From Blastocystis sp. Blastoise (lineage: Eukaryota > Protista > Bigyra: Opalinata), in contig JBBPEB010000002.1 of the NCBI GenBank assembly GCA_039096225.1, forward strand, positions 434,001 to 498,000: a stretch of 64,000 nucleotides of DNA, given 5' to 3'. Below are positions 12,570 to 48,977 of this stretch, piece after piece. Both the position numbers and the translations under genes were made by a program. A model generated the notes under the pieces. That model made no database searches. It had not been told where the DNA came from and worked only from the letters and a program-made list of their open reading frames with translations. Position 1 is the first letter of the stretch. Each line of letters begins with the position of its first letter.

Positions 12570-12856
12570 TTAATAATAATAATAATAATAACCAAACGGA
12601 AAAAACATTAACCCATATAATAAACTAATAATAATAATAGTAATAATAATAATTATATACACAACCAAATGAAAAAACATTAACCTATATAAATTATATA
12701 AATTAATAATAATAATAATATCATACATAAGCAAATAGAAAGTCCTAACCTATATAAATAAATAATAAAAATAATAATTATAATAATAATAGTAATAATA
12801 AATATAATAATATACAAAACCAAATAAAAATCGATTAACCTAGATAAATTATATAA

Positions 12857-12929
<73 letters not shown>

Positions 12930-13869
12930 TCATACATAAGCAAATAAAAAGTCACTAACCTATATAAATTAATAATAATAGTTACTATAATAATAATAAT
13001 AATAATTATATACACAAACAAAAATAAATCATTTATCTATATAAATTAATATTAATAATAATAAATCTAATAATAATAATAATAGTAATAATTATATACA
13101 CAAACAAAAGAAATAATCATTTATCTATATAGATTATTATTAATAATAATAAATCTAATAATAATAATAATAATAATATTTATATACACAACCAAAAGAA
13201 ATAATTATTTATCTATATAAATTATTATTAATCATTACTATATATATGAGAATAGGCAAAAAAATTCCCATTGGTCAGTTTTTGGAGAATGCATTTGATT
13301 GGCTACTATATACTAGAGTTTGTACCCACAACTCCTCTAAACTTACGGGGAGTTAACTTTTCGTTGAAACACAGTTCAATAGGATATAACATGTAGTTGT
13401 GCACCATATATTTGGTTAAGCGATATTATTAATAATTAAAAAGTTATTAATAAAAGAACAGAAAACATGATTTTTGAGTCGTTTTTGATTGGCTCTTTGG
13501 GATGACCCCGATAAAAATTGTTGACCAGACAATTGGAAAATAAACATGGGGTAAACTTGATTTTTTCTCAATCCCACAATATACGTTATCCGTGTTTATT
13601 CTTTATATTTATCTATTTTTTAATACTTTTTCATATTGAACACGTGAGGCCTTAACGGTCAAATTTAGATTCTTATTTTGACATCATATTCTGATTCAGG
13701 AGGTCCAAAAACCTAGGTGTAGCGATTTTCAGCTCCTGAGGACGATTTTTGAGTGATCCATATTTTCATCGATCTTCTTATAGTGGACTAATATTACAGC
13801 ATAGTAATCAATAGGTCATTAAACTACTATAGTTAAAACAAAGTCTTAAAATAACGAGTTTAAAAGTGA

Positions 13870-15340: not shown

Positions 15341-15660
15341 AAATGAATGTTGACTTTGTTATACTTAAAACTTCAAAATTCTTTTAAAAAGTATGAAAAT
15401 GAGTTTAAATTATTATATTATGCTAATTTAAATGAATTTTATAAATTAAAAATACTTCAAAGTACTTCACATTGTAACTCATTTCTGAAGTTATTGACTT
15501 TAAAAATTCACAAAATGCTTTAAACAGTTGTTTAATCATTACTAAATACAAAATATATTTTAAAAATAATTTTTTGTGATGAATATAACTCAAAATATTG
15601 TTTTTAATTAAAAGATAATTTTTATTTGTTTTCATTTCTTATTTAAAAAGTCTAAAATAA

Positions 15661-15728
15661 TCTTATATCAGGAATTGAACCTGATTACAATTATAAAATA
15701 ATTGTAACTCTCCATATAGAGTATAAGA
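15661..15728 (-). ncRNA. tRNA-like cloverleaf within Helitron H1 (atypical; TTT at the anticodon position)
   Basis: Minus strand: TCTTATA / CTCT-ATATGG-AGAG / TTACAATT-ATTTTAT-AATTGTAA / TCAGG-TTCAATT-CCTGA / TATAAGA; all four stems fully Watson-Crick; B-box GGTTCAATTCC. Expression unknown. Confidence 0.6.
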
Positions 15729-16603
15729 AATTAATATTTAATAAATAATATATATAATATATAATATATAATATATAATATATAATATATAATATATAAT
15801 AAATGACTCATATTAAAAACTATATATATAATATATAAGATAAAAGATAAATAAATATTCTTTATATACTCTTTATGCAGCCGCGGTCCGGGGCCGTTAG
15901 GCACTGGACCTGCGGCGTGACCCTAGTAATAATAAATATAATAATAATAATAATAATAGTAATAATAATAATACTAAATAATATACACAAACAAAAGAAA
16001 TGATAATTTACCTATATAATACCAATAATCGTTATTATTATAAAAGGAATATAATAATAATAATCTACATCAATAAATAAAGAGTTATTTACCTATAATA
16101 ATAATAGTAATAATAGTAATATATGATAAGGTATATAATATACTAAACATGAGTGTATTGATTGATAAATCATTGAGAATTGAGTGTGATGTTAATAACA
16201 TTCAAAATGCTAGCTATATACATAAAATAACTAAATTAGCAAGTTTTTAATAAAAATAAATGAAATATAATGAAATATTAAATAATATATACATAATAAT
16301 GAAATAATTGTTAATAAAAAATAAATGATAACAGCAATATAAAAAAAAAGAACTAAAATTTGAAAAGATTTTTATTATTGTTTGTATAAAAAAAAATATT
16401 TATCGCAAAAAATTTCTAGAAATTTCTCAAATAATCATATATAGACAAATATTTACCAATGATATTTTTTATAATTTATGGCTATTATTTTTCAGTACTA
16501 CTTCGTCATAACAAATCTTTAAATTCGTGATTATGACGCTATTATTTTTGTAGGAAAATGTGTTTTTATCAAATGCGTCATCCATTTTCTTCCAATCATA
16601 TTT

Positions 16604-17333
16604 CTAAATATATATATTTGATTTTATATATTTTATATATGTAAATACTAAAAACGAGTTTTTGATTATTTTTTTATCAATTATTACTTCTCCGCTACTA
16701 TTAATAATATTGAAACCAAAGGATGAAGGCAAATTCCCATTTTTCTTTTTATCATAGAGAGCATCTTTTACAATTCTTATAATTATATAATCATCTACTC
16801 TACTTTTTTCAAATGACAGCATATACTCTTTTATAATCAGTAAAATTAAAATTAAAAGTCTGTTTTCATCATCTATGTAAATATTTTCTTTGTCATTTTT
16901 GAAAATATGTTCAGCATCCTTTAGATCACGATCAGTCAATACATAAGGTAAAACCCTGAGGCATTTCTATTTAAAAAATCATGATTAAAAAAGAAAATTT
17001 AAAATTAGGATATAAAATACTTTTATTATTTTTGTAGAATGCATGCTTGACGTTACCTTTATTCCCCTTTTTAAAGCTTCTCGCCTAAATGCAATTTCTA
17101 AGTCATATGTTAAATAACTCTTTCCTTGAGAATCTAAAAAATAATATCATGAATACAAAGAAAAAACTACTATCTGTATCAGAATGAGCTAATCCATTGA
17201 AGAATTCATGACTAGCATGTAGAAGTTCAACTTTAAACTTCTTAATTTTTTTGGTTTCTTCATTTGTTAAAGATTTCTGCCTTTATTGTTTTTCTAATAG
17301 GTTATACATACGATATAAATACTTTTTTGGCAT
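16604..17333 (-). CDS. CACTA-B divergent companion gene (homologue of 2921-3641); 3' end may extend further
   Basis: ATG at 17333: MPKKQKSLTNEETKKIKKFKVELLHASHEF, LFTYDLEIAFRREALKRGIKVTS, LLILILLIIKEYMLSF..VDDYIIIRIVKDALYDK..FGFNII. Confidence 0.7.
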
Positions 17334-19527
17334 CTCGTAGCTTTTAAAATGATATAAAAGAGAAAAAGTATTATTTTTAGTATTTTGCTTTAAATATTTT
17401 GATTTTCTTTTTATACAAATAAGTTGTGTAATGGTTAAATATCAAATATTAATTCTTAAATATTTATCTCTAGTTTGAGAAAACATTGTGTTTTTAAGTT
17501 TTATGTCATAATACGTTTACAATCTACTATTTTTAGTCTCAATTTTATAAAATTAGTAAAAAAACACATAAATTTTATTATTATTATATTAAAATACAAT
17601 GAATAATTCAAATATGTGTGCATTATATATATATAATAAAGCTAATAAAAGAATCAAAATATTTTTAATTTTTTGTTTTAATAATAATTACTCAGGAATA
17701 AAAACTCATAAGCTAATAATAATCTTTTCATATTTCATTTAAATAAATTACATTAAAAGAAATATGATAATTGATTATAAATAAATATTTATTCATACGA
17801 CAAGCTTCACAACAAAAAAGTAAAATAGAGTAGAATCTTTACATATTCCCGTAAATATGAATTATTTCTATTTCAATATAACTTTGAATACAAGCTGAAA
17901 TATATATTAAATACAGGTCTTATATTTCTTAATATATATTTAAAAAGCACGAAAATACTTAAAATAGTCATAAAAATAGTATAATACACAAAATATAAAT
18001 ACTGATCATAATTATTCTTTTATAGACTGAATAATCACAGAGAACTGTGTTAATAACATAAGGAAGAAGCTCATTATAACATTTAGAAATCTATTACACT
18101 TTAATATATCCATATAGTGAATTATTAGTTCTAAATTGAGAAATGTCAAATAGAGAATATAAAGGTAGTGGCTATAAAGCTAAAAGAAGAACAATATCAC
18201 GTTTACGAACATTATTTGATAGTCTACCGGAATTAGTTTTAAACAATTCTCCTACTGCAACTTATAATGATAGTGTCGAAAATGATGAGATTTATGAAGA
18301 GAGCTTTAGTAATAATCAGGAGTTGTTGGTAGAAAAATTAATAGAATCAATACTAAATGATAAAGTATATATATATATATAAATTGTATAGAAAGTATTA
18401 TTGTTTCTCTTTAGAATCAAATAAAGGATATACATAAAGGAAATATAGAACGAATTGAAGAGGTAATACTTAATTGTTGGATATCATTAAAAACTAGCAT
18501 GCAAAACATCAAGCCTTTATTTGAACTTGTGAATAAAATAATAGATATTTTGTCTCTACCAATAAATAAACTTACTATTCCAAAAAATGGTCAAGAGGCT
18601 GTTAGAAGATTGATGAAATATGCTCAATATAGACCAACTCAGCGAAATATTTATCTTTGTAGTTCATGTAACTCTTTTATTGGTTTTAATAAAGGACAGA
18701 AACAGATTGATAGAAGTAAAAGAAAGTGTAAAGACTTATCATGTAAAGTCTCCAAATGTAAATATCTTATTATTATTTAAATATTTATACTTATTATTAA
18801 TACTTATATAAAGGTAGAAAGATAACAATAATACCTTTGATTCCTAGGATACGTGTTCTTCTACGTTCCCCTTTATTGATCAATGATATTAGCTACTTTA
18901 CCAAAGAAGATGTTTTGAATATAATAAGATGTAATAATAAATCTGAATTTAAAGGTCCAATGTATTTAATGAGTAAAAACTATAAACAATATATAGATAA
19001 GGTAATCAACAATGGTGATATCTTTCTTGTGTTTACTCTAACCTGTGATGGAATAAGCATTTTCTCTCATTCACTTAGCGAATATAATAAATCATCATTT
19101 CCAATATTATTAAAATTATTAAACTATAACTATAAAAGACAATATGATAAACGAACTTTCTGGACATATACAGTTTCCTCTGAGAATTTTAGTGATAATA
19201 TACTCTCTATAATTGTTGAAGAGTTTAAACAATTAGAAAAGGGTATAGATATGGATGTTTATATTCATGGTATGTTACAAAGGAAAAAAGTTGTTTCAAT
19301 TCTATTGAATGTTTCTGGAGATTGCGCTGCAATATCAAGCATTGGACATTTTACAGGATCAGCTTCTTCTTTTCCTTGCAGATGTTGTGAGTTGGAGTGG
19401 AAACGTGATGATAAGAGTTTTCATCAAGGCATTAAGTGCTCCTTTTCGCATGTGTCTGATCTCGTAAATAAAGATGAGATGACAGACCAACTTCACAGCA
19501 TCAGATTTCCAATTATGCCATATAAAG

Positions 19528-20574
19528 GTATATTATTATTATATCAATTTATTATATTAATAGTAGTACATCTATTTATTATATTAATAGTATTATTACA
19601 TCTATTTATTATATTAATAGTATTATTACATCTATTTATTATATTAATAGTATTATTACATCTATTTATTATATTAATAGTATTATTACATCTATTTATT
19701 ATATTAATAGTATTATTACATCTATTTATTATATTAATAGTATTATTACATCTATTTATTATATTAATAGTATTATTACATCAATTTATTATATTAATAG
19801 TATTATTACATCAATTTATTATATTAATAGTATTATTACATCTATTTATTATATTAATAGTATTATTACATCTATTTATTATATTAATAGTATTATTACA
19901 TCTATTTATTATATTAATAGTATTATTACATCTATTTATTATATTAATAGTAGTACATCTATTTATTATATTAATAGTATTATTACATCTATTTATTATA
20001 TTAATAGTATTATTACATCTATTTATTATATTAATAGTATTATTACATCTATTTATTATATTAATAGTATTATTACATCTATTTATTATATTAATATTAT
20101 TACATCAATTTATTATATTAATATTATTATATCTATTTATTATATTAATATTATTATATCTATTTATTATATTAATATTATTACATCTATTTATTATATT
20201 AATACTATTACATCTATTTATTATATTAATATTATTATATCTATTTATTATATTAATACTATTACATCTATTTATTATATTAATACTATTACATCTATTT
20301 ATTATATTAATATTATTACATCTATTTATTATATTAATACTATTACATCTATTTATTATATTAATATTATTACATCTATTTATTATATTAATACTATTAC
20401 ATCTATTTATTATATTAATATTATTACATCTATTTATTATATTAATACTATTACATCTATTTATTATATTAATATTATTATATCTATTTATTATATTAAT
20501 ATTATTACATCTATTTATTATATTAATATTATTACATCAATTTATTATATTAATATTATTATACATATATATAG
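19528..20574 (+). repeat. Intron expanded by a 30-bp then 27-bp minisatellite (tattattacatctatttattatattaatag)
   Basis: GT at 19528, AG at 20574; splicing gives YK-D-NEEKH; 1047 bp, stop-free in frame. Confidence 0.85.
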
Positions 20575-21821
20575 ACAATGAAGAAAAGCATTATACTGTT
20601 TTAGTTAATTCATTGCCTAATAAAATTTGCTATAATGATGCATACTCTACGAATACATACCAAAATAGAACTTATGAGTCTATTAAACAGTATAGACTTT
20701 TCGGTATACAGGATGGATCATTTAAGGGTATAAAATGTGTACCAAGCTGTTTCGAAAGATTATCTTACTTTGATACATCATCAAGTTTTCCCATAGATAC
20801 GATGCATCTCTTTAACAACATTGTTACACTTCTTCTTTCTTTATTATTTCATTACAATTCAGATAAATACTCTTCTTTAATAGCCAAGACATTTTTAAAT
20901 AATGAAAACGAAAATGAAGATATAGATAATACATCCCATAGCGTAAACACTGAAAATAATAATGAAGCTACCTCTAATTATGCAAAAGTTAAAGCAGATA
21001 AAATAGTATCTGGTTTTCGTCTTAACAAGGAAAATATGAATATACTTAACACTCGGATAAATGATATTAACACGTTTTACAATAAGTACGAATATAAATT
21101 CCGATTTGCTCTAAATGAGAAGAAATTTTGGTATTTATCATCTCATACAAGAATCTTTTTTTTCTCTGTTATATTACCTTTAATAACTAACGATTTTAAT
21201 ATGAAAGACTCTCCCATTATATTATTGATAAATCCTTTAGCGACGATAATACGTATAATAGAAATAGAATCTCTATCATTATCTAATGATTCAATAGACA
21301 TTCTACAAAGACAATGCTATCTATTTTGTTTTTAATGTGACCTATTGCTCCCAAAAGAAATTATCAACAGTCAGATACATTTAATTCAGCATCTTTCAGA
21401 TTCTATTAAGTCTAATGGATCTTCAACTTATGGATGTACTTATCAATCGGAACGATTTTATTCACATATAAAACGAATGACTTTCGGAAGGCTATGTTTC
21501 AATGAATCAAGTTTAAGATGTTTAGTACAAGATGAGATTTGTAATATTAATATTAATAATAATGTATTTGATATAAATAATAATCATAATAATATTGATT
21601 ATCCTTTAATATTAAACGAATCACAAAATATAACGGAAAATAATAGTTATTCCTTTCCAGAATTTAGAAAAATTGTCTATACAAGCAATAGTAATATCGT
21701 AAATTTTAGAGGATTAAGAGAAGCATCGAATAAAACATTGAACGAAGAAGAAATATATTATCTACTTAAAGAATTACTTTTATCAGGGAATATGGAAATA
21801 AAAAAAATATTATTAACCAAT

Positions 21822-22014
21822 CAGTGACTTCCAAAAGGCCCTTTTTTTTTGCGGTGCCGCAATTGTCACAGAAAAATGTGACACTTTTGTTAATTTTTGA
21901 CAGTGTAAAAATATTTATTATTATATTAAGTCATATTAAGTCTGACTTAAAGAGACTTTATGTGACTGTCAAAAAAAGTCACCGCAAGTGTCACAAAAAG
22001 TCGGGAAGGCACTG
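21822..22014 (+). mobile_element. 193-bp hAT-type MITE, copy 1
   Basis: TIR cagtgacttcc / ggaaggcactg (10/11); 8-bp TSD taaccaat (21814-21821, 22015-22022); almost identical to 41816-42008. Confidence 0.93.
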
Positions 22015-22880
22015 TAACCAATATAAATATAGATAATACTACAAATCTATTAGATCTATTAGACTCTGTGCTATCTTATACAAGATTAAAGGAAAACATG
22101 AAGTTGTTACAAATGTATTATTATTCCGAAATATTAGTAAATGAAAATTTAGTTTTTACTTCTACAGATGAATATGAAGGTGTTGAAAAAATTGATAACT
22201 CATATATCGCGTATTCACTGGATAAAGATCATCCAAAAGACTCTATTCATTTGATAAAAGCACTATACTATATTCAGATATATGATGTAGTCCTAATTAG
22301 AAAACATGAATATCCTCAGCCACATAAATCAACCACTAATATATTTTTCATTATAAATGACTCAAATAATGTAGTACCTTCGAATTCAAAATATGGATCA
22401 CCTTTTTTATCATTAACTCATATTATACCTGATAATATGGTAGTTTCTGATATACATAATAATAATATAGATGAGGAATCACATTCTAAAGTATATACTA
22501 CTTATTCATATATATATATTAATACTATTAATGTTTATCATAGACAAATATTCGAAAGAACCAATCCAGTATTCCAGTTTATAATCCGGAATCAATTCAA
22601 ACATCAACAGTATTTACTTCACGTTATTTAGAATCAATCAAATCATTTTTTTAATTTTTCTGTTATATTTATAATATAGTTTATTAATCAATAATCTCTA
22701 TAAGATTTATTATATATATTTTATGTATATTTTCTAAATAGTATTTATAATAACTGCAACATCGGTTTATTCTTTTGTTTATTAATAATATAAATTTATG
22801 TTTATATCTAGTTAATTACAAGCATTGTAATTAAACGTAAGAATGCACCATATTTTCATATAATCAGTATATAAGTGTCA

Positions 22881-22922: not shown

Positions 22923-23199
22923 ATTTTGAAAAATTCATATAACTTAAGACATTACTCCATGTATTAAAAAGATGACATATTGCAATTTTAGATTAACACT
23001 CAGCTGTATATCGTAATAGAAATTGTTCTTATCATTTCAACATTTTGCTAATCAATTTAGCTTTATTTTATTCATATATTTATTCTTTAACATGCAAAGG
23101 TACATATCAATAATAATAATATTACGCACTTATTTTTGAACGAAGGAATACAATAAATCATTTATAGAAGAAAAAAGTAATAAGGAAGATATGGAAGTT

Positions 23200-25620
23200 A
23201 CATTAAGTTTATATTTACAAAAGAATACAAAAAGGAGAGCGACTAGGATAAAGATAAAAACGTTAAGATAATCATACACGTTTTAAAAGAAAGGTAAACA
23301 GAAGGAATTAAAATAATCTATGAAAAAAATAAGAATACTGATTATGGACAGCAATAGATATCCAAAAGAAATAATTGGAGAAAAGTTAAAAAGGAAAAAT
23401 CAAGTAATGATGAAGAGTAAGTATAGTAACACTAACTAATTAGGATAGAAATGGATTAGTACAAGAATACAAATATATAAATCCCAAAAAGAGTAGAAAA
23501 AGAAACAAGACACAAATAGGAGTAGAGAAGCAGGTATAAAAGCAAAAATTAGAAGATAAAGATAAATAAGAAGGATTAGAAGAAGAAGAGGAAGACAGAG
23601 TAAAAGAAGAAGAAGAATGAGTAGAGAAAATGCTAGTAAGAAAGTACAACGTGACTAAAAATATCATGAAATAAAATATAAGTTGATAAATAGTCGTATA
23701 ATTATTGTATCATCAGGAATAATAAAGAAATATTATACGATAATAAAGCGTAACTGAATAGTATTAATGATATGTATTGAAAACAAGAAGTATCATATTT
23801 GTTGGAAATCTTCACGAATGTGAAACAAAAAGAAAACAGCTTTAGAAATTAAAACAAAATTGTTTTTAGAAAAAGTACAATTTGAATAAGATAAAGAATA
23901 TTAAAGTAGCAACAATTTCATGAGGAATAGGAAAAACTATAAGAATAACAAGAAACAGAATGAAGAGTAATAAATTAAGGAGAAGAAATGAAAAATAGTA
24001 GTATCAAAATATGATCAATGAAGTAAAAACGGAAAGAGAAACATCAATTTAACACTGAATGAAAAGAGTATTAGACACAATGAAAAATAATAAATATAAT
24101 AAAAGAAAGAAGCGAATGTAATAAATAAGCCAAAAATAAACATAGAAGAAAACTATGATATATACTAAGATGATTAGTATAGGAAAAAAATTAAGATGAA
24201 GACAAGAACATAATATCAAAAATACTAGAGTATAAGAAGAATTAGAATCATTGATATTTGCATATTCGTATAATCAATAATAGAAGAGGATGAATAATGG
24301 ATAAAGTATGAAGATTAAAAAAATAATTAGTGACAAAAAGAAGAGTCAGTATTATTGAGAAGATACATATGAGTAGACATAGCTATACCAGAAGCGACTA
24401 TTGGAGTATTAAAGCCAGAAATACATAATATCAAAGATAGGTAGTAAATAACCTTAAATAAACAAGATAAATATGAAGATTAGAATATAAGTACAGACTA
24501 AGTAATAAAAATAAATAGTTGTACAGATGATTAGCTAAGTAATAATACATGTATTAGAAACGTATATAAAGAAAGAAAAAACGAATTTAATAAGGAGAAA
24601 AATACCATTATTAAAGTAGAAAGATATAAACAATAAAAAAAGATAAAGAAGGAATTAACCTAAACATATTAAAGAAAATACAAAGAGAATCATAAATAGA
24701 ACAAGAAGAGTAAAGTGTAAGAAAGAAAATGAAGATTAAAAATATAAGAAAAGAATAAATGAATGAATTATTATGAAGTTAGCCTAAAATTAAAAACGAT
24801 GAAATAGTAGAAGAATATGGAGTATTTCTATTTTGACATTTAAAAAATAAGGATAGAAGTGTCTGAACAAATAAAATCAATATTGAGTATTAGCAAAAAG
24901 TAGTAAGATAAGAAATAATTGTAAGAAACATTTAAGCGCAATATCGGAAGCAAAAGATAAGCTAATTAAAATATGATTGTAAAAAGGTGCCACAGACATG
25001 CGACTAATAAAAAGAGGGTAGTATTAGTAACATGAGAAACGGAAGAATTATTAATTTAGAAGCAGAAGAAACTATAGTATTATAAGCAATCATTTTAGAA
25101 GAGGAAAACCAACAAAGAAAAATATTAGCATATAACTATAGTTTGATTAAGCAATATAAAGAACAAGAAGAAGACTATTAAGACCAGAAATAGTAAAAAA
25201 AGCACTAATACTGGAGGAATAAAAGAATAGTATGAATAATAAGAATAGCATGAATATTATCAATAAATGATAAATGATCGAACTGATACGAATTGCTAAA
25301 TGTAACAACAAAGATAGTTGAATCTAGAAACTATCTAAATAATTATAGAAACTGTTAGAAGATAATAATTGCAACATAGTGTAAATTGAAGATGCTGAGA
25401 ATGTAGGAGAAAAATAGAATCTAAAAAGAAAGTACATCGTAGTTAAAGTGAAATGTTAAGGAGTAAAAATATTAAAAAAAAAATAAAATAACTAAAAACA
25501 TAAAGACAGAAGGAAGAAAAGAGATATAGCTAATCATAATAAAATTAGTAGTGTAAACAATTTCTGATAAGAATAAGTACCAAACTGAAGCGAAACAAAT
25601 AGGAAAGTAAAAACATAGGG
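23200..25620 (+). pseudogene. Decayed coding cargo in CACTA-B, weak resemblance to a USP (peptidase C19) His-box region
   Basis: Purine-rich with many stops; fragments PKINIEENYDIY, ELESLIFAYSYN, WIKYED around 24130-24320. No intact catalytic motif seen. Confidence 0.3.
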
Positions 25621-25956
25621 AAATATTTTAAGACCATTAGAAACTTATAGTTACGCTTATATAATAAAATAATCATAAAATCCTTTTTGATTTTTTTCGT
25701 AGATAACTACCTCTAAGGCGTTAATAGTATAATAATCAATGATATTAAATGAATTACAAAGAATCGTTTGAGTCTATTATTCAGTATAATGAAATATAGA
25801 AAAAAATATAGCAGGATAAATAATACATATAGCAAAAAGCTAATAATTATAATAATGTGTTTGGAAAGTCTTCTAGAAGAGATAATATTAACACAAGGAG
25901 AACTAGTAGTATTAATATCAGCAATAGAATTAATAATTTTCAAATAGAAAACTATG

Positions 25957-26098
<142 letters not shown>

Positions 26099-26299
26099 TA
26101 TGTATAAAATGTATATACTCTGATATTATATGGATAATGGATAGATTATTTAACGAGACAATATAGATAGAAGCTCATAATAATAGGTATATGATAACGT
26201 TCGCAATTGATAATTATCAATAAGATCCATAAATAATAAATTACTAATCATTATTTACACTTTAGATCAACATATTTTAAAAGATCCATTACTATATAA

Positions 26300-27115
26300 A
26301 TACAATCATGGTAATAAACAATTTCTATATATATACTAGTTATTTAGATTCATCTCTTTCTCTCTGTGGTTTAGTTTTTAATATTTACGTAACTATATCA
26401 AGAATCTTGTGGAAGTTACTATATATAATAGAATATAGATTAATATATAAGAATAATAATAAATAATATAACTATATACGTTTCAAATATATATTCAGGT
26501 AATTATAATTATATTATATTATGCATAACATAAAGAAGAACGAATTGTTTTTTGCTCATTTTTATTAGTATGTACTGTCTTTCTATATTAATAATACGTA
26601 ATAGTAATCAATATATATATATATATATATACTTTTAAGTTTAGATATCAATTCATTATATCTAGTACATAATACTCGGATTCTAACACGTATTTCATCA
26701 TTTATTATAGGACATTTTCCTTCATTATCTTCTTTTATTCCTTCTTCATCTTCATCTTTATCTGATCATCAATTTCTTCTAATATTTTCTCTTCTATATA
26801 AGTTTCTTTTTCTTTTTCATATTTTATATTCTTATCTTCAGTATTATTATCATTTTCAGCTTCAGTATCATCTCTTTCTCTCTCTCTTTCTAAGCATCTA
26901 GCTTGTTGTATAATTTCTTCTTCTTATTCTTTTTCATAAATTACTAACACAATCCCATTTACGTGTTGTCATCTTACTACCTATGCTTCTATTTCTTCAC
27001 TATATTCCTTCAAATCTTCTTTGCTAACATCAGATACACTAACTCTCCAGTTATATACTAAAGAACATAATACACGAATTATTACCTTCTCACCAAGTTT
27101 CTTATTCTCTATCTA
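26300..27115 (-). pseudogene. Decayed spliced host-gene fragment (Glu/Lys-rich) in CACTA-B
   Basis: Minus-strand exon-like stretches (NWRVSVSDVSKEDLKEYSEEIEA*, EEIIQQARCLERERERDDTEAEN) with stops, flanked by (AT)n introns. Confidence 0.4.
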
Positions 27116-27199
27116 TATATATACATAGGATATATAATAGAATAAACAATAATAAATAATAATATATAAATATTTTATATATATATTATTCTTATATAT

Positions 27200-27890
27200 A
27201 TATACCTTTTTAATGATATTTCCGAATTAGAATAATGTTTGAGACCAAGGAATAAGACGATTAAAAGCACCAAGAGTATTAATATTATAATGTCATTATT
27301 TCTATAAAGAATATGAAATATATTATAGTTATAACATTTATGAATAATAATAATAATAAATATAATAATAATTATAATATATATAAAAACAATAATATAT
27401 AAACTTACAATTTTAATTTTGAAAGGACACAACTAATGAGAACACACAGAAATGATTTCAAGAAAACTAATATTCTATATATAAAAAAAATAATATAGCA
27501 AGTATATAAAATAGGAAAATAGAAAAAATGAAAATAAAATCAATATTTTATATAGGAAAATAAAAAAATAAAAATTTGTTAATGCAAAAGAGGGAAAAAA
27601 AGTTGTAATTATATACCTTCAACAGTGTGCTGAGTGGTTATCCGACAATGTTTAGAATAAGAGTCATCAAAAAACCTAGAAAACAAAATAGAAAAAAAAA
27701 TGCAAAAAATACCTTTGTAAATATATAGAAGAAACGATTCTATTTGATAACACTTTTGGTAATAACCAAGGAAACTGTTTGACAGGAGACGAGAACCCAG
27801 AATGGAAAACCTAAAAGAATTATATAAAAAAGAAGGAAATATTTATTAAATATATACTTATAAAGGGGATACATATTCTAGAAACTCCTA
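27200..27890 (-). ncRNA. Putative spliced non-coding leader (5 short exons) at the right end of CACTA-B
   Basis: GC-richer 30-100 nt blocks bounded by tag| and |gta on the minus strand; intron and upstream scaffold homologous to 35300-36250 while the exons diverge. Confidence 0.5.
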
Positions 27891-30299
27891 AAAAATAAAT
27901 AATAATGTCTATATATGACTGATAATAATAAATTAAGAATAAAGATAAATTCACTAATAAAATTAAATTTGTTAGTCAAACACAAAAAAATTTCATGAAA
28001 AAACGATTTTTAAAATTTTAAATTTTTTTATGATCCACTACTAGAATTACAAGTTTTAACACGTCATGTACTACACTATTGACACAACACTATTGTATTC
28101 CACAACTTTCAGCTTTAAAAAAATTATTCATTTTTGTTGACTCTCTGATCTGTTGACTCACCCATCCAGAAACTATTGATTCTAACTTAAAAAGTTTGTA
28201 CGTTACATAATTAACTCTAAAAACAACTTTTTAAAAGACTTTTATTTGATTCTGAAGAAAATGTGTTTTTTAATAAACTTTGACATACTTTTTGTATGCG
28301 GAACTTTGATTCATATTAAAATTTAATGAAGAAACTGTTCTACAACTCTTATGTCCTCTGATATCATTACTATTATAAAGCAAATAGGCAAAAAAATTCC
28401 CATTGGTCAGTTTTTGGAAAATGCATTTGATTGGCTACTATATACTATAGTTTGTCGCCGCAACTCCTCTAAACTTACGGGGAGTTAACTTTTGAGTGAA
28501 ACACAGTTCAATACGATATAACGTGTAGTTGTGCACCGTATATTTGGTTAAGCGATATTGTTTATAATTAAAAAGTTATTAATAAAAAAACAGAAAACAT
28601 GATTTTTGAGTCGTTTTTGATTGGCTCTTTGGGATGACCCCGATAAAAATTGTTGACCAGACAATTAAAAAATAAACATGGGGTAAACTTGATTTTTTCT
28701 CAATCCCACAATATACGTTATCCGTGTTTATTCTTTATATTTATCTATTTTTTAATACTTTTTCATATTGAACACGTGAGGCCTTAACGGTCAAATTTAG
28801 ATTCTTAATTTGACAGCATATTCTGATTCAGGAGGTTCAAAAACCTAGGTGTAGCGATTTTGAGCTCCTGAGGATGATTTTTGAGTGATCGATATTTTCT
28901 TCGATCTTCTTATTATCGACTAATATTATAGCATAGTAATCAATAGGTCCTCAAACTACTATAGTTAAAACAAAGTTTTAAAATAATGAGTTTGAGTATG
29001 ACAATTTTGAAAAATGTGAATTAAGTGGTCTTAGAGTGAGAGATTCAATATAATGACTTTTATTTAGTAAACTAGAGATAATACTCTATACTATGTTAAA
29101 AGGAGAGTCAAAATTATGAAGGTCAAAGTGTATGACCAAATGACAAAATGTGTCTTAAAAAGTAAAAGGGTTTGCATATGTGTTTAGAATCATGTATTAA
29201 GTCTATTTTATGAATAAGAGCTTTAAATAAATAGTTTAAGGTTGTCAAATTCAAAAGAATATGTAAAACATAGTCTTAGACTATGAATAAAAAATTTATA
29301 GATATTAATTAGTGTACAGCTGTAGTAGCTCTACAACATATCAAAAGTACAAAGAAAATAATTTTTAGAGAGTGGATGTGTGAGGTGTTGTGACTATTAT
29401 TTAAAATTTATTTTTACTTCAGTTTGAGCAAAATTGTGAATTTCGTACACTATAGAAAAATTGAGTCAAAATATCAACTCTAAGGGTCTTAAATTTTGAA
29501 AAATGTAAAAATGAGTGACTTAGATGACGAGATTCAAAATAAGAGTGTTTATTCATTAAACTAGACTGTATGATCTATATTATGTTAAAAGAAGGGACGA
29601 AAATGTTTTGATCAAAGTGTATGACCAAATGGTAAAGTGTCTTTAAAAAGTCTAAAGTGATGACTAATTTGTTTATAGAGTCATATAAAGTCTACTATGT
29701 AAATATTAGCTTTTAAAAATGTGTTTAAGTCTTTCAATTAGTAAAAATATGTTCAAAGAGAGTCATAAAATGAGAGTTTTAAGAAACGAGATATTGTTCA
29801 GTATACACTAAGAGACACTCTACAACATATCAAAAATATAGCAAAAACTATTTTTAGAGAGTGGATGTGTAAAGGGTTGTGAGAGTTATTGAAAAAATAT
29901 TTTTACTTCAGTTTGTGCAAAATCGTGTTTTTGGAACACTGTAGAAAAATTAACTTCAAAAATCAACTCTAAGGGTCTTAATTTTTAAAAATGTGAAAAT
30001 GTTTGACTTAGAGGACGAGATTCAAAATTCCCCCTCACTTTTATATAACTAGACCACACACTCTATACACTATCAGGTATTCCCGTGATACTTTTTGGAG
30101 AGTTTTGCCAAAAAATGACTAAATTACTTTTTAAGACTATTTTCAGTCAGGCGAAAAGAGTAGCCAAAAACTAGGTTATTTTTGTCGAATATGGTCTTTC
30201 TTTTCATTCGTTCAGAATTCTTTTAGAAACGTCATTTTATTATTAATTTAATCGTTGTGTGAATGATAATCAATATATATATATAACAAAAGACAATAA

Positions 30300-30925
30300 A
30301 TAATATATAATAATTAAAATAGCAAGAAAGATAAGAAAATAATAATTATTTTGATTTGTTTTGATAAATTGGCAACTGTATCTGAGGACTATATATATAA
30401 ATTGATAGAACTAATAATAATATAGATAATATAGAATACATACCTTCTAACATCACTTCTAGACCAACTCTTGAACAAGAACCAAAACTATAAAAATAGA
30501 ATGTAAAAAAATAAATATATTATAACAATATACCTTCTAAATCCTAGCAGTGTAGACCAAAAGGGACACCAGAGAGTACCTAGAACCTATAAAAAATTAA
30601 ATTAGTTAATTTCAAAAAAATAAAATATAATTAAATACCTTCAGAAGCATTGATTTGTTGACCAAGGAGACCTGAGACAATAGTTGAACCTATATAAGAT
30701 AATAAATAATAATAGCAGAGAGAATGCTAAAAAATATATACCTTTAATACAACCAGATTTCTATACGTTCAGGCCCGGAAACTCATAAACTAACTAAAGA
30801 GAATAAAAGAAATGAAAAATAAGCATACCTTTAAAAAAGAAGACCAATTAGGACCTATTAGAATCTATTTTGACACACCAGTAAGCCTATATAGAATAAG
30901 ATAAATAAAAAAAATATTATATACA
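30300..30925 (-). ncRNA. Putative spliced non-coding RNA of micro-exons near the left end of CACTA-C
   Basis: Exons 30829-30886, 30742-30789, 30639-30689, 30534-30586, 30444-30487, each tag|...aag|gtat; the first has stops in all three frames. Confidence 0.55.
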
Positions 30926-31899
30926 TTTAATAATATATAAAATATAGTTGTAAATTAAAGAAAAATAAAAATAAATATGCGAAAAAGTTGAATCTTATAA
31001 ACAAAGAGAAATTCCCCCTTACAATTTTTTTTTTTGTATAATAAAATTCTTTACAAAATCTGGGTTTCCAGGGGTTACAACATTTTTAAATTTTCCCTTT
31101 TTCTCTAATAAAAAGTCTATTTGAATATAAAAATGATTTATAAATGTAATATGTGTTTATGAACCTAAATTATTTAATTACAACATGTTTAAGACTTATT
31201 AGAACAAAAATATAGTTATTTAAAAAATCTTTAATTACAATTAAATATATTTGTCTGCTATTTTTATATAATAGTATTTTATTTATAACAAGAAGGTCCT
31301 AGATAATCAAGAGAAATATTTAGTATAATCACTTATAGAGACATGATTCAAAATTTATAAACTTTTGTTTCTAATATGATTTATTTCAACAATTTATCGA
31401 TTATTGTAGATGTATAAATAAAACGAGAATGTTTGAAAGCTTTGTGAGTTGTTTAAGACATAATAAAGAATGTAATTTATTAAAGTATAAAGTAGATTAA
31501 TATTTACTCTTTTTTCTATTATTCCAAAAGAATTCTATAAATAATTTTATTCCTAAATATCAACAAAACAAATAGAGTAATATATAAAGAAATAAAACAA
31601 AATAAAAGATAGATAAAAAAGATAATATATAGTATATATATAGTAATATATCATTATAATATATATAATATGAATAATTTATTAAACTCCTTTCTATTCT
31701 ATATATACATGATTATAAAACCATATATAATTTAAATATATATATATATTGATATAGTATTATAAATATATATATATACAAGAGTTATCATTATCTTAAT
31801 ACATAAAGGAATCATCCAAAAGTTTATATAATAATAATAATATAATAATAGTAATAACAATAAGTATATAATATATATATATATATATACAAGATATAT

Positions 31900-33624
31900 A
31901 ATAACCATGTTTCTGATAATCATGGTTATCAATAAGGAACATAAAACGTGGGTATTATAGGAGGTATATAGTTGTATATATATGTTTTATATGGTGGTAA
32001 TTCTTCAAATAGATAATGATCCTTTTTCTGTAGTTTGTATGGAATTGTCATAACTATATATATATATATATATTATATCAAAATATAATAATAAAGTATA
32101 TATATAAATATATAATATCACGAGAACAATAAAGTATATATATATATATACTTGAGAAATTCTAGAATAAGTATTTCCCACGATTATAATTCATAAAGAC
32201 AACACGCTACTCTTAGTAGGGAAGATGAAGTAGGAGATAACAGGATAACAGTATATAACCACGGGGATAATTAAGTATATCCTATAAAATATGTAATAAG
32301 AAAATCATGTGACATAAGTAGCTGATAGAGGGATTCAAACATTCATAGAATACATATATTCTATATAATAATAATAATAATAATAACAATAATAATATAT
32401 ATATATATATATATACAAAGTCATCCAGTATATTTATATCATATATATCTTCTTATCCGCGGTTTTCAGTCGGTTACGAAGAGAATATACATATTGAACA
32501 TCAATAGCTATATATATTATATAATATAATAATAATAATAATACACACAATAATATATACAATAAATATAATGTAACTATAATAAAACCATAATAAATAC
32601 AAAACATACAATGATCATTATCTTCTTCTCTTTTTCCTATATAAGTAAACATATCTATCATTTCTTTTTCTTTTTTCTTTCCTGTTTCTTCTTCACCTTC
32701 AATTTCAACCGTATTCAGTATATGACTTAATCCATAAATCAGTTCTCCACTAGGTTTTTCTTCTCCTTCTCCTCTTTCTTTCTCTTCATATGTATTCATT
32801 AATCCTATTTCTTCTTCTTCAGGTACTTCCATATCATTATCAATCATCAAATCATTTCCTGTATCTTTATATGCACCTGTGAAATAATTAGTAGTAGGAG
32901 GAGGAGGAAAAGGAGGACTATAGACTTCTTTTAAACTATTATGACTCATAAAAAAGGAAATAGAATAAATATCAATCTTTTTAATGTATGTAACTGAGGA
33001 GGTATATAAGAAGAAGGACAACGAGCTATTTGTATAATTTCTTCTATTCTTGTTAATAAGGTATATATCATATCTTGAGGAATATAATTCAATTCATATA
33101 TATATAGACTTACTAATATTGTTTCTCTTCTTTGTATTATATATAATAATATGATATAATATTATAAGTAAGAAACGAGATAGTACAGTATATGAATTGA
33201 AATGGATTTCAAAGGAAGGTTTAAAAGCATAATAAACTGAAGAATAATTTAAAACACTTATATAAATATATTGCATTCTTTAACCATGTTGTTAAGAAGT
33301 CTATAATAATATACAATAATAATATATAATAATAATAAAATATATATATATAATAAAATATATATATATATATATATATACAGCTCTCCGATTTATAAAG
33401 TGGAATCAATGAGAATATCACGTGCTTTTCTTCATTTGATTCGGGAGTACAAATACATCCTTAACGGAAAATATACTCACCAACTGTTTTAATAGAATTT
33501 CGAATAGAATCAGGAATAGGTTGTGATTCAGGGATGTCATTTATATATATAACTAACAATTTTACTTAATACTTTAATACTCTATAAATAATATGAATAT
33601 AAGTATATATATATATGTATAATT

Positions 33625-33655
<31 letters not shown>

Positions 33656-34369
33656 AGTATATATAAATATATACTTGTACTGTACATATATCAACACTTG
33701 TATTTAATAATAAACTTTGTAAATATTCACGTTCTATATATAAGAATATATAATAATAAAAAGCATAATACTATATATATATATACGTTGATTAGGGAAG
33801 AAAGGGAGTAGTTGACATATAATGGTAGTTGCTTGAATGTATTCATATATACTGCTATTATGAACAGCTTCATAAAATATATCAATATCCTTATTTGTTA
33901 AAGGGATAACAGTGCATATATATTGAAGAAGAGAGAGAGACAATCGTAACGTTTCTGTATTTAAACACTGTCGGAATAACACATCTAATATATCTCTGTC
34001 TCGTATATATTGAACAAGTGATTTATAAATAGCAGATTTCTTTACCGTTTGAAGATCATTAAATAATGTAGTTAAATTCGTTATTCCATCAATTTTATTT
34101 TTCATGTTTGATCTCATCAACTTATATATATATATATTAATATATAATTTTTGATAATCATAAGGATCTTGATAAATTTTTCGTTTTTCAGCAAATTTCA
34201 GTGTATTTGTATATTCATCAACATCAATTTGGCGGGGAAAATCACTTGGTAAAAATTTTTATAAACTATATATATATACATTTCATTACAAATAGTAACA
34301 AGTGAAGGAAGAGAAGTAAGTATATAAATATATATGCTTAATTTATACATAGAGAATAAGTATTCAAAC

Positions 34370-34409
<40 letters not shown>

Positions 34410-35173
34410 TATATATATATATATATATATATACATCTTTTCCAAAGTCGATATCTGCCCATAATGATTGTAATACATTCATATATTCATATAAAGAGGT
34501 TTCAATAGCTTTATATAAAAAACTATAGGGTTTACAATAATATCGTTTATCTGTATATTCCTCGACAAATGATTTGAGTTTCGTACTGAGAATGGGGTCT
34601 GTTGGAGGGGGATTGAGGGGAGTCACGAGACGATCACGTGCTGGAATTTCTTTTAGAATCGTATATGAACCTTGAGATAAATCAAAACTATATATAGGGT
34701 TGAATATAAATATAATAGAATATAATATATATGTATACATAAATGCTCTATTATCACTATTTCGTAGTGAATATGTATATTTATCAGAAATGGGGGAGTA
34801 AGAAAGATCTATTATGGTATAAATCCTATATAATATATATAATATATATATATAATATATATACTGTTTGTCCTGATGATAATAAATAAGTAAATTCTTA
34901 TCATGAGATGTATTGGTTAGTACAAGTGACGCATCTAGATGACGCTCCAGGTAAGGAAATGGCTCTACTCTATAATAATATATAATATATAATATATGTA
35001 TAATAATAAATAACAAATAATATATATATATATATATACATATCAACTTGAATATCTTCTAATCCATAAATATCTGCTTGTGTATATCCATCTTAATAAA
35101 CTCTGTATATATTCTTATATATACCTCTCTCTTCAAAGAAATCAAGCACTATTCCCGTGATTCTAAAGATATT

Positions 35174-35205
<32 letters not shown>

Positions 35206-35270
35206 CGTATAATTATCATTAACATGAATAGACATATAGAGACCAATATCCTTTGTAAAATCAGTCTATA
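31900..35270 (-). pseudogene. Captured intron-containing host gene fragments; 33734-34120 resembles the helical N-terminal region of USP34/USP9X/USP24-type deubiquitinases
   Basis: Many GT-AG exons with (AT)n introns; SNMKNKIDGITNL..LVQYIRDRDILDVLFRQCLNTETLRLSLSLLQYI..LTNKDIDIFYEA; stops in some exons. Confidence 0.5.
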
Positions 35271-35299
35271 TAATAATAATAATTATAATAAATATATTG

Positions 35300-35780
35300 T
35301 GAATTACCTTTTTAATTTTTAAAGAACACACCAGCAACCTAATTCACCAATGGCAACTAAAAAGCACCTTCCTATATAATATAATATATAATAAACATAT
35401 ACTAAAAATAGAGTAAATTAAAAAAAGAATAAAAGAATATTGTAACATAGGAAAAGAGAAAAAAGAAAAATATCTAAATGCAAAGAAAAAAAAATATATA
35501 ATTATATACCTTCTAGACTTTGTTAATTGATTATTTGAAGTACCGACAAGACCTAATAAACAACCTAAAAAAATTAAAAATAAACAAATGTAATAAAATA
35601 CCTTATAAGAAAAAACCAAACAAGTACACATGATGAATCACTTTGAAACCGACCTAGGAGAATGTCTGACAGGAGAAGGATTTCCAAAATGGGAAACCTA
35701 AAAGAATTATGAAAAAAAGTAGAAAATATCTAATAAATAAATACTTATAAAGTGCATACCTGTATAAAAAACACCATAAA
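35300..35780 (-). ncRNA. Putative spliced non-coding leader at the right end of CACTA-C, positioned to splice into the cargo
   Basis: Exons ~35308-35371, ~35510-35564, ~35602-35697, each tag|g...aag|gta; paralogous to 27200-27890. Confidence 0.5.
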
Positions 35781-37509
35781 TAAGTATAAAAATATCTATA
35801 TATGTTTGGTTATAATAATTTAAAAATAAAGATGAATTCACTAATATAATAAAATTTGTTAGTCAAATACTAAAAATTTTCGTAAAAATAGCTTTTATAT
35901 TTTTTTTTAATTTTTTATGACTCACTACTAAAATTACAAGTTTTAAACGTTATGTACTGAGCTATTGACACAACACTATTGTATCTCACTACTTTCAAGT
36001 TTTAAAAAATTACTCATTTTTGTTGACTCTCTGATCTGTTGACTGACTCGTCTAAAAACTATTAATTTTGACTTAAAACGATTGCATGCTACATAATTAA
36101 CTCTAAAAGTGACTTTATAAAAGACTTTTATTTGATTCTGAGGAAAAGTAGTTTTTTTAGAAGTTTTGGCATACTCTTTGTATGCGGAACTTTAAGTCAT
36201 AATAAAATCAAATGAAAAAACTCTTCTAAAACACTTATATCCTCTGATAGTCAATAAAATATAAATAGACTCAGTTTTGAACGAGAAAAATATTCCCGTA
36301 AATATTTTAAAAATTCAAAACTCTGGTCTGACTGCCCATGGAACAAATAGGCTCGGCTCAATTTTTCAGTGTAAAAAAAATATAAAATTTTGACTTTTTG
36401 GCTGAATTTTGGTTTCGAACCATAGAGGTCTTTTTATTCATTTTTAATCATATATGTGACTCTGAGAGGGTCTTCACTTTAAACACAACTATAAAATATT
36501 TTAAAATATTGACCCTCATTTTCTTCAGAATTGCGACTTTAAAATAAATAAAAACGGTTTGGATATCGTGTGATCCTCTGTAAATAAAAAATATTGTCAA
36601 TTCTTTAATAAAATATGTTTAATAGGGTTTTTGTGTCTAAATCAAAAGTCGACTTAAAATTTTTATGAAAATTTTGTTTTTTTTTGCCTAAGTCTTTTTT
36701 TTGTTATAATTTATTGGCTGAATAAGTTTTGAACGAAAATTAGCCAATCAAAAAGCTTTAAAAATTAAAAATGACCTGATAGTGATATTATGTCAAAAGG
36801 AGAGACGAAAATATTTTGGTCGAAGTAAATGAGCAAATGCAAAAGGTTTACGAAATGTCTTAAAGTGATGACCAATGTGTAGCTATGGTCTTATTAAGTA
36901 TAGTGTGTAAATATTAACTCTTAAAAATGAGTTTAAATGTCTTAACTTTTCATAATGTGTCAAAAAGGGTCTTTAAGAAAGAGATTCAAAACATTTGCTT
37001 TTATTTAATAAATAGTATGATAAACTCTATACTATATCAAAAGACTGAAGGAAATTATTTTGATACAGTGGATCTTGAATGTGTAAAGTCTCTTTAAAAG
37101 TTATATTTTTGAGTTATTTGTGTTTAAAATCATTATTAGAGACGACTGTAGAAATATTAACTTTTTAAATAATGTTTTAGTTGTCAAAGTGACAATGAAT
37201 GTTGACTTTGTTATACTTAAAACTTCAAAATTCTTTTAAAAAGTATTAAAATGAGTTAAAATTATTATATTATGCTTATTTAAAGGAATTTTATGAATTA
37301 AAAATACTTCAAAGTTCTTCACATTGTTACTCATTTCTAAAATTATTGACTTTAAAACTCAAAAAAAGCTTTAAACAGTTGTTTAATCATTACTAAATAC
37401 AAAATATATTTAAAAAATTTTTTTGTGATGAATATAACTCAAAATATCGTTTTTAATTAAAAGATAATTTTTATTTGTTTTCATTTCTTATTTAAAAAGT
37501 CTAAAATAA

Positions 37510-37577
37510 TCTTATATCAGGAATTGAACCTGATTACAATTATAAAATAATTGTAACTCTCCATGTAGAGTATAAGA
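37510..37577 (-). ncRNA. tRNA-like cloverleaf within Helitron H2
   Basis: Identical to 15661-15728 except one D-loop change (ATATGG to ACATGG). Confidence 0.6.
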
Positions 37578-39151
37578 AATAAATAATAAATGATTAATAA
37601 TAAATAATAATAAATAATAATAAATAAATAATAAATAATTAATAATAAATAAATAATTAACAATAAATAATAAACAATAAAAAATAAACAATATATAAAA
37701 ATAATGAAGGATACTAAAAAACTAAACACACATATTTTCATGCAGCCGCGGTCCGGGGCCGTTAGGCACTGGACCTGCGGCGTGACCCTAGTTCAATAAA
37801 ATATAAATAGACTCAGTTTTGAACGAGAAAATTATTCCCGTAAATATTTTAAAAATTCAAAACTCTGGTCTAAATCTCCATGATACAAATAGGCTCGGTT
37901 CATTTTTTCAGTGTAAAAAAAAAATAAATTTTTGACTTTTTGGCTGAATTTTGGTTTCGACTCATAGAGGTCATTTTATTCATTTTTACACACACTTATA
38001 ACTCTAAGAGGCTCTAAACTTTAAACAGGGCAACAAAAGGTTTTAAAATATTGACCCCGTTAATTCACAAAATTATGACTTTAAAATAAATAAAAACATT
38101 TTTGATATTGTGGGACCCTCTGTAAACAAAAAATAATGTCAATTCTAAATTAAATAATGTCTAACAGGGTCTTTGAGTCTAAATCAAAAGTCTACTTAAA
38201 ATTTTTGTGAAAATTTTATTTTTTTTGCCTAAGTCTTTTTTTTATTGAATTATTATTGGATGAATAAATTTTGAACGAAAATCAACCAATAAAATTGCCT
38301 TAAAAAGTCAAAAGCACCTACTAGTGATATATTTAAAATTTTTGTAAAATGAACTCTTTATATGCTATATCTCAATAAAAGTGAACAAATATAAATAGAC
38401 CAACTTTTGAACAAAAGAATTATTCCCGTAAATATTTTAAAAATTCCAAACTCTGGTCTGGCTGCCCATGGAACAAATAGGCTCGGTTCTCTTTTTCAGT
38501 GTAAAAAAAATATAAATTTTTGACTTTTTGGCTGACTTTTGGTTTCGACCCATAGAGGTCTTTTTATTCACTTTTACACATATTTATGACTCTTAGATGG
38601 TCTTCGTTTTAAATACAACTAGAAAATATTTTAAAATATTGACCCCCTTTTTTGACAAAATTACGACTTTAAAATAAAGAAAAACGTTTTTGATATTATG
38701 TGACCCGCTGTAAATAAAAAATAATGTCCATTCTTTGATAAAATATGTCTAATAGGGTATTTGAGTCTAAATCAAAAGTTAACTTAAAATTTTTGTGAAA
38801 AATTAACATTTTTTGCCTAAGTCTTTTTTTATTCATGTCTCATTGGATGAATGAATTTTGAACGGAAATTAACCAATTAAAAACCTTTAACAAGTCAAAT
38901 ATGCCTGTCAGTGATTAATATTCAACATATAATTATAATTATAATATATTTAGAAACTAGATAACATAAACATGATGCATTTTAATATTTTTATTTAATG
39001 TTTAGTATTGACTAAAATATATAAGTTTATATGAAAAACATAAAATCTACAATTCACTCGTTTTTTTCTCGATTATGACTCGTTTTTCTAGAATATTTTT
39101 TTTAAATATTTCTTTAACGCTTAAAGTAATACAGGTAAAGAAAACGTCTTA

Positions 39152-44350
<5,199 letters not shown>

Positions 44351-48872: not shown

Positions 48873-48945
48873 GCCTCGATAGCTCAGTCGGGAGAGCGTA
48901 TGACTGAAGATCATAAGGTCCCTGGTTCGATCCCGGGTCAAGGCG
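48873..48945 (+). tRNA. trnF: tRNA-Phe (GAA)
   Basis: GCCTCGA TA GCTC AGTCGGGA GAGC G TATGA CT-GAA-GA TCATA AGGTC CCTGG TTCGATC CCGGG TCAAGGC G; T-rich tract follows; C5:A68 acceptor mismatch. Confidence 0.93.
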
Positions 48946-48977
48946 TAATTTTATTTTTATTTATTTTTTTAGATTCT

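Follow-up and report, generated by a model that had tools for sequence, protein, structure and literature searches.

To our knowledge, the accessory functions of transposons known so far are proteins or DNA binding sites. Runs of short exons are familiar from other settings: the micro-exon genes of Schistosoma encode proteins in exons whose lengths are multiples of three, and snoRNA host genes combine non-coding exons with intron-encoded snoRNAs. Helitrons are recognised by a TC start, a subterminal GC hairpin, a CTRR end and insertion between A and T without duplication, and HUSH reportedly silences intronless elements. In C. elegans, PATC introns have features that protect from silencing (PMC4947018). 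Closest to the locus described here are CACTA elements. The Pack-CACTA elements of Arabidopsis join non-autonomous CACTA ends and a 3-bp duplication to captured host gene fragments, and Pack-CACTA1a has a reported internal promoter (PMC6379663); fragments captured between the CACTA ends of soybean Tgm-Express1 can be spliced into chimeric RNAs (PMC1947982); and En/Spm tnpA and Tam1 tnp1 are abundant multi-exon RNAs of CACTA elements, tnpA being protein-coding and co-directional with the transposase (PMC2613891). Outside land plants, the red-algal giant Plavaka elements (EnSpm; PAG1-3) carry extra genes thought to favour the element (bioRxiv 10.1101/2025.02.11.637652).

The window analysed here is a stretch of 64,000 nucleotides from Blastocystis sp. 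Blastoise (contig JBBPEB010000002.1, positions 434,001 to 498,000); its ORF at 4330-6891 is identical to an NCBI protein of this organism, from which 14 further matches also come. The GC content of the window (22.6%) falls within the 21-23% that, together with longer introns and canonical stop codons, is reported for the tortoise-associated Blastocystis clade in the part of PMC10690189 covered, and we infer that the source belongs to this clade. Such a tortoise-type Blastocystis harbours CACTA, Pack-CACTA and Helitron-like families that are nested in one another and by which fragments of host genes are shuffled into spliced transcripts. When all 63 CACT[AG] sites in the window are paired with all 56 [TC]AGTG sites, three of the 1446 left-right pairs, here called A, B and C, agree in no fewer than 12 of 14 terminal letters and are flanked by a 3-bp target duplication. 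The original prediction of three CACTA elements thus stands, with the addition that they are nested. The elements are:

1975-38913: element A, the outermost CACTA, with an ATT target duplication
About 3770-6890, plus strand: transposase of element A
About 2900-3760, minus strand: second, spliced ORF of element A
12104-38326: element B, a CACTA nested in A, with an ATA target duplication
18143-22631, plus strand: transposase of element B, with an in-frame stop
About 16600-17330, minus strand: second ORF of element B
30068-36784: element C, a non-autonomous Pack-type CACTA inside H2, with an 11-bp terminal inverted repeat and an ATA target duplication
13232-15926, plus strand: H1, an uninterrupted Helitron-like copy within the left array of B
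28364-37791, plus strand: H2, Helitron-like and non-autonomous, with a TC start, a GC hairpin, a CTAG end and an A/T target; host of C

B thus lies inside A, H1 and H2 inside B, and C inside H2, and the flanks of C rejoin when compared with the uninterrupted Helitron-like copy at 13231-15941. The terminal inverted repeats of A, B and C start with CACTA or CACTG and their target duplications (ATT, ATA and ATA) have 3 bp, as in CACTA/EnSpm elements. Of the domains of a TnpD-type transposase, DUF4218 is weakly matched in seven of nine members of the transposase family (best E 1.7e-4) and Transposase_21 in one of nine (E 0.022), the inspected scores lying under the Pfam cut-offs; the second ORFs of A and B, both spliced and opposite in strand to the transposase, have no Pfam match, and C contains no transposase. 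H1 and H2 show the TC start, subterminal GC hairpin, CTRR-type end and A/T insertion without duplication of Helitrons as generally defined, and no Rep/helicase ORF was seen in either. A metagenome scan with the transposase alignment gave 593 pattern matches, none of them confirmed, and no related locus. Within the transposase of B, a 1047-nt block of 27-30-nt tandem repeats (19528-20574) is bounded by AAG/GT and AG and has a length divisible by three; judged by these features it may be a repeat-expanded intron, which the NCBI model P0015 translates instead. The interiors of A (7000-10900) and B (23000-26000) carry a strong plus-strand purine skew, the GC skew reaching 0.37 and the AT skew 0.38; neither a long ORF nor homology to the cargo was found in them.

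Between its ends, C carries captured sequence and a candidate regulatory motif:

31780-35265, minus strand: cargo of C, captured multi-intron gene fragments that look ARM/HEAT-like; this copy contains an in-frame stop, and the left boundary is approximate
31068-31074, minus strand: CCCCTGG, about 190 nt upstream of C-left exon 1; candidate promoter element, function putative

The cargo has 16 annotated relatives, 62-100% identical over a 111-residue query and variously truncated, ten of which are fused to other N-terminal sequence. Captured fragments with truncated or chimeric relatives in an element without a transposase mark C as a Pack-type element, and its several copies are likewise typical of Pack-CACTA. 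The nearest lead to the origin of the cargo, a USP24/USP9X-type cluster, is weak (Atlas score 0.82), five cargo proteins gave no Pfam match, and no homology to the cargo was found in A or B. Five of the 16 annotated relatives begin in exons of the right array and one ends in exons of the left array, these gene models being predictions with unverified junctions. About 900 nt without predicted exons separate the cargo from C-left exon 1. CCCCTGG has five copies in the window against 0.1 expected, and the other four precede two small ORFs: at 62447-63953 lie three small intronless plus-strand ORFs, two of them preceded by one and three copies, and the two that were scanned gave no convincing Pfam match. 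A second cargo subfamily (P0022-P0031) joins the ARM-like fragment to an unrelated N-terminal piece, which we take to be fibro-slime-like, with no Pfam match in three scanned members; P0030 additionally carries a DDE_3 domain. These fusions suggest that exon shuffling by these elements is ongoing.

The original prediction placed five exon-like blocks of 44-58 nt, bounded by TAG and AAG/GTAT, at 30300-30925, near the left end of C. They are present on the minus strand, and their junctions were compared with RNA contigs from four (X1 to X4) of five runs, placed on the window stretch 26150-30910. X2 is a poly(A) gut metatranscriptome; X1 comes from a separate study, is presumed to be RNA and may derive from the source material of the window itself. 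The left array of C (C-left) reads as follows, in the order of transcription:

30887-30925, minus strand: predicted further intron upstream of C-left exon 1, GT..AG in sequence
30829-30886, minus strand: C-left exon 1, 58 nt; X2 contig with 0 other letters, joint 30793/30829
30742-30793, minus strand: C-left exon 2, 52 nt; joints 30793/30829 (X2) and 30687/30740, cut +2 (X1, X2)
30639-30689, minus strand: C-left exon 3, 51 nt; joined on both sides in X1 and X2; carries the ATG of a doubtful 64-65-codon frame
30534-30586, minus strand: C-left exon 4, 53 nt; joints 30584/30637, cut +2 (X1, X2), and 30487/30534 (X2)
30444-30487, minus strand: C-left exon 5, 44 nt; joints 30487/30534 and 30388/30444 (X2)
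30301-30388, minus strand: C-left terminal exon 6; X2 contig ends at 30301, X1 loose end at 30305

All five predicted introns of C-left are spliced in X2, with CT..AC ends (GT-AG on the minus strand), and the listed X2 exon pieces contain no other letters than the window; in X1, two of the five are joined, in a contig of depth 196. The main X1 contig retains intron 4, downstream of exon 4, from which it follows that splicing of C-left is not uniformly efficient. X1 contigs on the adjacent Helitron-like DNA are about 2-5 deep, although contig depth is a poor measure of expression, contigs reveal neither ends nor strand, and they could stem from near-identical copies elsewhere in the genome. The array lies outside the coverage of X3 and X4, from which nothing follows. 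The six-exon RNA thus has at least 346 nt and includes an exon, starting from 30388, that the original prediction lacked; 5' of exon 1, the covering X2 contig has 37 unplaced letters. Contigs from the two studies end at 30301-30305, which is 233 nt inward from the terminal repeat. On the RNA strand, the X1 loose end (30305) closes with a short A run, a weak hint of poly(A), and together these contig ends hint weakly at the 3' end of the RNA. The original claim of heavily spliced non-coding transcripts near the element ends therefore holds for C-left, which is transcribed, multiply spliced and most likely non-coding, and RNA confirms it for this array only.

Each of exons 1 to 5 is preceded by TAG and followed by AAG/GTAT; these exons have 33-45% GC, and the introns are 35-55 nt long with 8-23% GC. 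In the 626 nt of C-left, five AAG/GTA[AT] donors lie on the minus strand, while the plus strand has none; five donors are reached by none of 5000 base shuffles (mean 0.08). As predicted, four blocks contain GACCAA on the plus strand (30462, 30555, 30660 and 30842), TTGGTC standing 19-27 nt before four donors, and exon 1 has stops in all three frames. Exons 3 and 4 are weakly similar (p 0.007, uncorrected). The joined RNA forms no stable fold (minimum free energy -64.9 against -69 to -70 for shuffles, z +0.9), and 30068-31300 has no Rfam match at E up to 1. The longest match to the exons in the window is 15 nt, borderline for chance and in the same sense (exon 3, 30673-30689, against 44803-44817, itself a repeat near the end of another DDE element); no telling complement was found in the window, and a metagenome scan with the exon-2 motif revealed no related locus.

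Is this RNA translated? Every frame of the joined 346 nt contains stops. The longest stop-free stretch has 87 codons, close to the roughly 86 that the original prediction had set aside as possibly due to chance, but only 21 of 2000 shuffles of the whole RNA and 35 of 2000 made exon by exon (about 1-2%) reach that length, and 31 and 44 of 2000 match the frame of 64-65 codons from the exon 3 ATG; this rarity counts against a non-coding reading. The paralogous copies point the other way. Seven segments were compared by eye, namely two of the three rows of one table and five of the 15 listed among 45 loose ends, a choice that favours in-register rows; the X1 loose end at 30870 in exon 1 lacked a clear register and was excluded. 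They agree with the window in 87 of 159 letters (55%) with no gap, and 66 of 159 letters (about 40%) are G or C, which compares with 38% in the C-left exons, 27-32% in coding exons and 22.6% window-wide. Differences are spread evenly over the three positions modulo 3 (22/27/25; p 0.77 by chi-square), and leaving out the second exon-2 segment gives 17/21/20. With only 55% identity, yet register, splice sites and GC kept and no codon bias, C-left is likely non-coding, and taken together its exons behave as non-coding sequence selected for being exons. A conserved ORF, which the original prediction had named as refuting it, is not indicated by these segments.

One annotated relative, P0029, runs from the cargo into the C-left exons (E 5e-8). 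Its tail translates exons 2-6 (69 open codons) in a different frame, one that is interrupted by stops in the window copy, and its exon lengths differ after exon 3 (35 against 46 codons), so conservation of exon length is not family-wide. The array-derived tail has no homolog among proteins of 37-121 residues, and of three matches among 50% representatives the two inspected are translated tandem repeats, leaving no credible homolog. Reassignment of TAG to a residue, which would open frame 1, was rejected, as four long coding stretches contain no in-frame TAG. Overall, C-left shares with spliced long non-coding RNAs transcription with GT-AG splicing and, on the seven short paralogous segments, the lack of a conserved reading frame, and we consider it very probable that its RNA is spliced and non-coding.

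Arrays had been predicted at both ends of all three elements. The remaining ones are:

35308-35697, minus strand: C-right array, upstream of the cargo, with leader exons predicted at 96, 55 and 64 nt; annotated models begin there
27206-27810, minus strand: B-right array, a homolog of C-right with predicted exon lengths of 98, 59, about 65 and 96 nt
2290-2670, minus strand: A-left array, strong donors at 2468 and 2399; its predicted exons are 56 and about 33 nt long
10960-11620, minus strand: A-right, weak candidate exons only, 18-25% GC
12661-16011, minus strand: B-left, eight tandem units of an intron and a predicted 23-25-nt exon, split by H1

Relative to the window average, strong minus-strand donors are enriched in C-right (3, P 9e-4), B-right (3, P 2e-3) and A-left (2, P 9e-3); A-right and B-left have none, and the candidate sites of A-right do not align with those of B and C. 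Hence C-left, C-right and B-right are well held and A-left is plausible, while A-right is weak, B-left is of another kind, and the claim for all six ends was overstated. An alignment of family members, as originally proposed, shows splice sites conserved above exon sequence between B-right and C-right: splice-site windows, which include the invariant GT and AG, agree in 42 of 48 letters (88%), against 115 of 196 (59%) in exon interiors and 98 of 158 (62%) in introns (Fisher p 1.6e-4 and 7e-4). Exon lengths (98/96, 59/55 and 65/64) differ by 2, 4 and 1 nt. The X1-X4 contigs list no RNA joint for B-right (27200-27890), an absence that proves nothing, and two RNA contigs terminate at its predicted splice sites (27206 and 27112). 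The right-end arrays of B and C look like spliced leaders of captured-gene transcripts. The left arrays of A, B and C resemble one another in low-complexity sequence only, and GACCAA is not common to the other arrays. Further RNA contigs give a minus-strand joint in a paralog at 26405-26480 (depth 60) and a low-depth 468-nt piece (26645-27112) that starts at a predicted acceptor downstream of B-right. CCAAT and TGACGC/GCGTCA motifs between the second ORF and the left array (A 2750-2840, B 16455-16580) are possible promoters of the left arrays of A and B, judged from their letters and position.

How does this compare with the systems described so far? Schistosoma micro-exon genes share runs of short exons with C-left, but exon lengths divisible by three are found in one of five C-left and three of eight B-left exons (taking the micro-exon gene as commonly defined). 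Likewise, snoRNA host genes share runs of short non-coding exons, but the C-left introns are 35-55 nt and AT-rich (8-23% GC), with no Rfam match at E up to 1 in 30068-31300, so that the snoRNA host gene as usually understood does not fit. C resembles Pack-CACTA and Tgm-Express1 in its ends, duplication and captured fragments, but their spliced exons are captured host exons, whereas the five short introns of C-left lie in the element's own arm and show no coding signal; further, C-left varies between members with its architecture kept, may own a promoter and belongs to a stramenopile host (PMC6379663, PMC1947982). Like tnpA and tnp1, it is a multi-exon RNA of a CACTA element, but its exons lack codon bias and are on the other strand from the A and B transposases (PMC2613891). 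The Plavaka elements are likewise EnSpm outside land plants, but their accessory genes are proteins, and the part of that account covered makes no mention of a spliced non-coding unit (bioRxiv 10.1101/2025.02.11.637652). C-left would resemble the PATC and HUSH systems if splicing or intron features license expression; those, however, are host-side rules in animals, and a transposon-borne cassette exploiting such rules in Blastocystis is a proposal only (PMC4947018 for PATC). No description of such a spliced unit was found among the top-ranked literature results, main texts being covered, and the words CACTA and Helitron are absent from the main text of the Blastocystis genome paper, whose supplementary repeat table S3 may name them (PMC10690189).

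The reading we tentatively favour, at somewhat less than even odds, is that the six-exon unit is kept for the act of splicing, by which the element stays gene-like and silencing is limited. The RNA would start from its own promoter near 31070 and be polyadenylated about 230 nt inside the terminal repeat. As five of 16 annotated relatives begin in right-array exons, a right-end promoter with spliced leader exons may feed the captured gene, and when right-end transcripts read through the cargo, as in P0029, the C-left unit could double as a 3' exon cassette. Dense co-transcriptional splicing at the ends would hold them host-gene-like and active, so that the element might pass as a host gene and silencing be limited. 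Against selection for splicing stand the chance that the RNA comes from near-identical copies elsewhere, the weakness of A-right and the merely low-complexity likeness of the left arrays; a search for literature on RNAi or intron-sensing silencing in Blastocystis found no paper. A broader version is doubtful, namely that CACTA-type transposons came to possess an accessory gene without a protein product, a "splicing flag" dense in introns, free in sequence and selected in architecture for escape from silencing, and recurrent across eukaryotes. An expressed RNA with five introns that loses sequence from copy to copy while its splice architecture is kept would be a different kind of accessory module, and a natural test of splicing as a "self" mark for genome defence, in a lineage remote from the animals and plants in which this was demonstrated.

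Several other explanations need to be weighed against selection for splicing. A plain UTR cassette, with the right array as 5' leader and the left array as 3' UTR and poly(A) site of one minus-strand unit (the cargo in C, the second ORF in A and B), would give the introns no role of their own and keep them as a processing need of an intron-rich genome. All arrays do share their strand with the cargo or second ORF, right-array exons start five and left-array exons end one of the 16 relatives, and fragments captured by Tgm-Express1 are spliced into chimeric RNAs (PMC1947982). Yet the exon-free gap of about 900 nt before exon 1 contains a candidate promoter motif, five introns with uniform AAG/GTAT donors in 600 nt go beyond the needs of a UTR, the AAG is missing from three cargo donors read by eye, and the supporting gene models are predictions; this account is rather unlikely, and if true it would make C-left the ordinary UTR of a Pack element, of modest interest. 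That the array is a decaying but still spliced relic, of an old captured host gene or a lost TnpA-like accessory gene, would suit a family that captures gene fragments, the 11 exons of En/Spm tnpA itself (PMC2613891) and the 69 open codons across exons 2-6 in P0029; it is improbable given that the paralogous segments have diverged by 45% with no gap and no loss of GC in a 22% GC genome, that no frame has a codon signal and that the open translation lacks a homolog. We give only a slim chance to a micropeptide of 64-65 codons from the exon 3 ATG, hydrophobic at both ends and perhaps fast-evolving. The 87 stop-free codons speak for it, as does the frame staying open, by eye, across the blocks that are replaced in exons 4 and 5 of the paralogous contigs, but the ATG is missing from one paralogous segment, retention of intron 4 in the main X1 contig shortens the frame, and third positions hold just 10 of 29 differences in these segments. 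Moreover, the frame was picked after the fact among six frames and several arrays, and its end at the RNA 3' end calls for a poly(A)-made stop, which is not supported, such stops being reported absent in the tortoise-associated clade in the part of PMC10690189 covered.

The paralogous contigs alternate near-identical blocks with replaced blocks of equal length, and this pattern could also reflect a trans-acting RNA whose variable 17-21-nt blocks serve as guide, decoy or small-RNA precursor, the TTGGTC blocks 19-27 nt ahead of four donors being constant protein-binding parts. With no telling complement in the window (the 15-nt match at 44803-44817 is in the same sense), TTGGTC lost in one exon-1 paralog, and neither structure nor Rfam family, this is very unlikely. 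Least probable is an origin by tandem duplication of an intron-exon unit as DNA-level subterminal repeats, putative sites for the second protein with splicing as a by-product: tandem repetition is clear in B-left, exons 3 and 4 of C-left show a weak likeness, and TnpA binds subterminal motifs in plant CACTA elements (PMC2613891), but splice sites are what B and C conserve, and GACCAA occurs on one strand and at one end only. Antisense self-regulation, which had also been suggested, finds no support: C has no transposase, the array lies on the strand of its captured gene, and no match longer than 13 nt links the C-left exons to the transposase genes in the window.

Finally, the window holds further repeats outside the CACTA elements. 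A non-LTR retrotransposon at 48873-57044, directly behind a tRNA-Phe gene, has a 2551-codon ORF with RVT_1 (E 5e-33), whose tail is presumably, from its motifs, a restriction-like endonuclease; a second, truncated copy (58948-60976) starts with only the last 23 nt of that tRNA-Phe, and the two starts suggest tRNA-targeted insertion. Inverted repeats of 873 bp (42867-43733 and 60951-61815, 87% alike) bracket 17 kb including the retrotransposons, with a third partial copy at 48243-48520. Fragments of another multi-intron DDE transposase, which we take by motif to be piggyBac-like, lie at 39180-40900 and 43900-44350 (DDE_Tnp_1, E 0.003) and are interrupted by other repeats, and two long near-perfect palindromes are found at 41297-41504 (207 nt) and 61815-61943 (129 nt).
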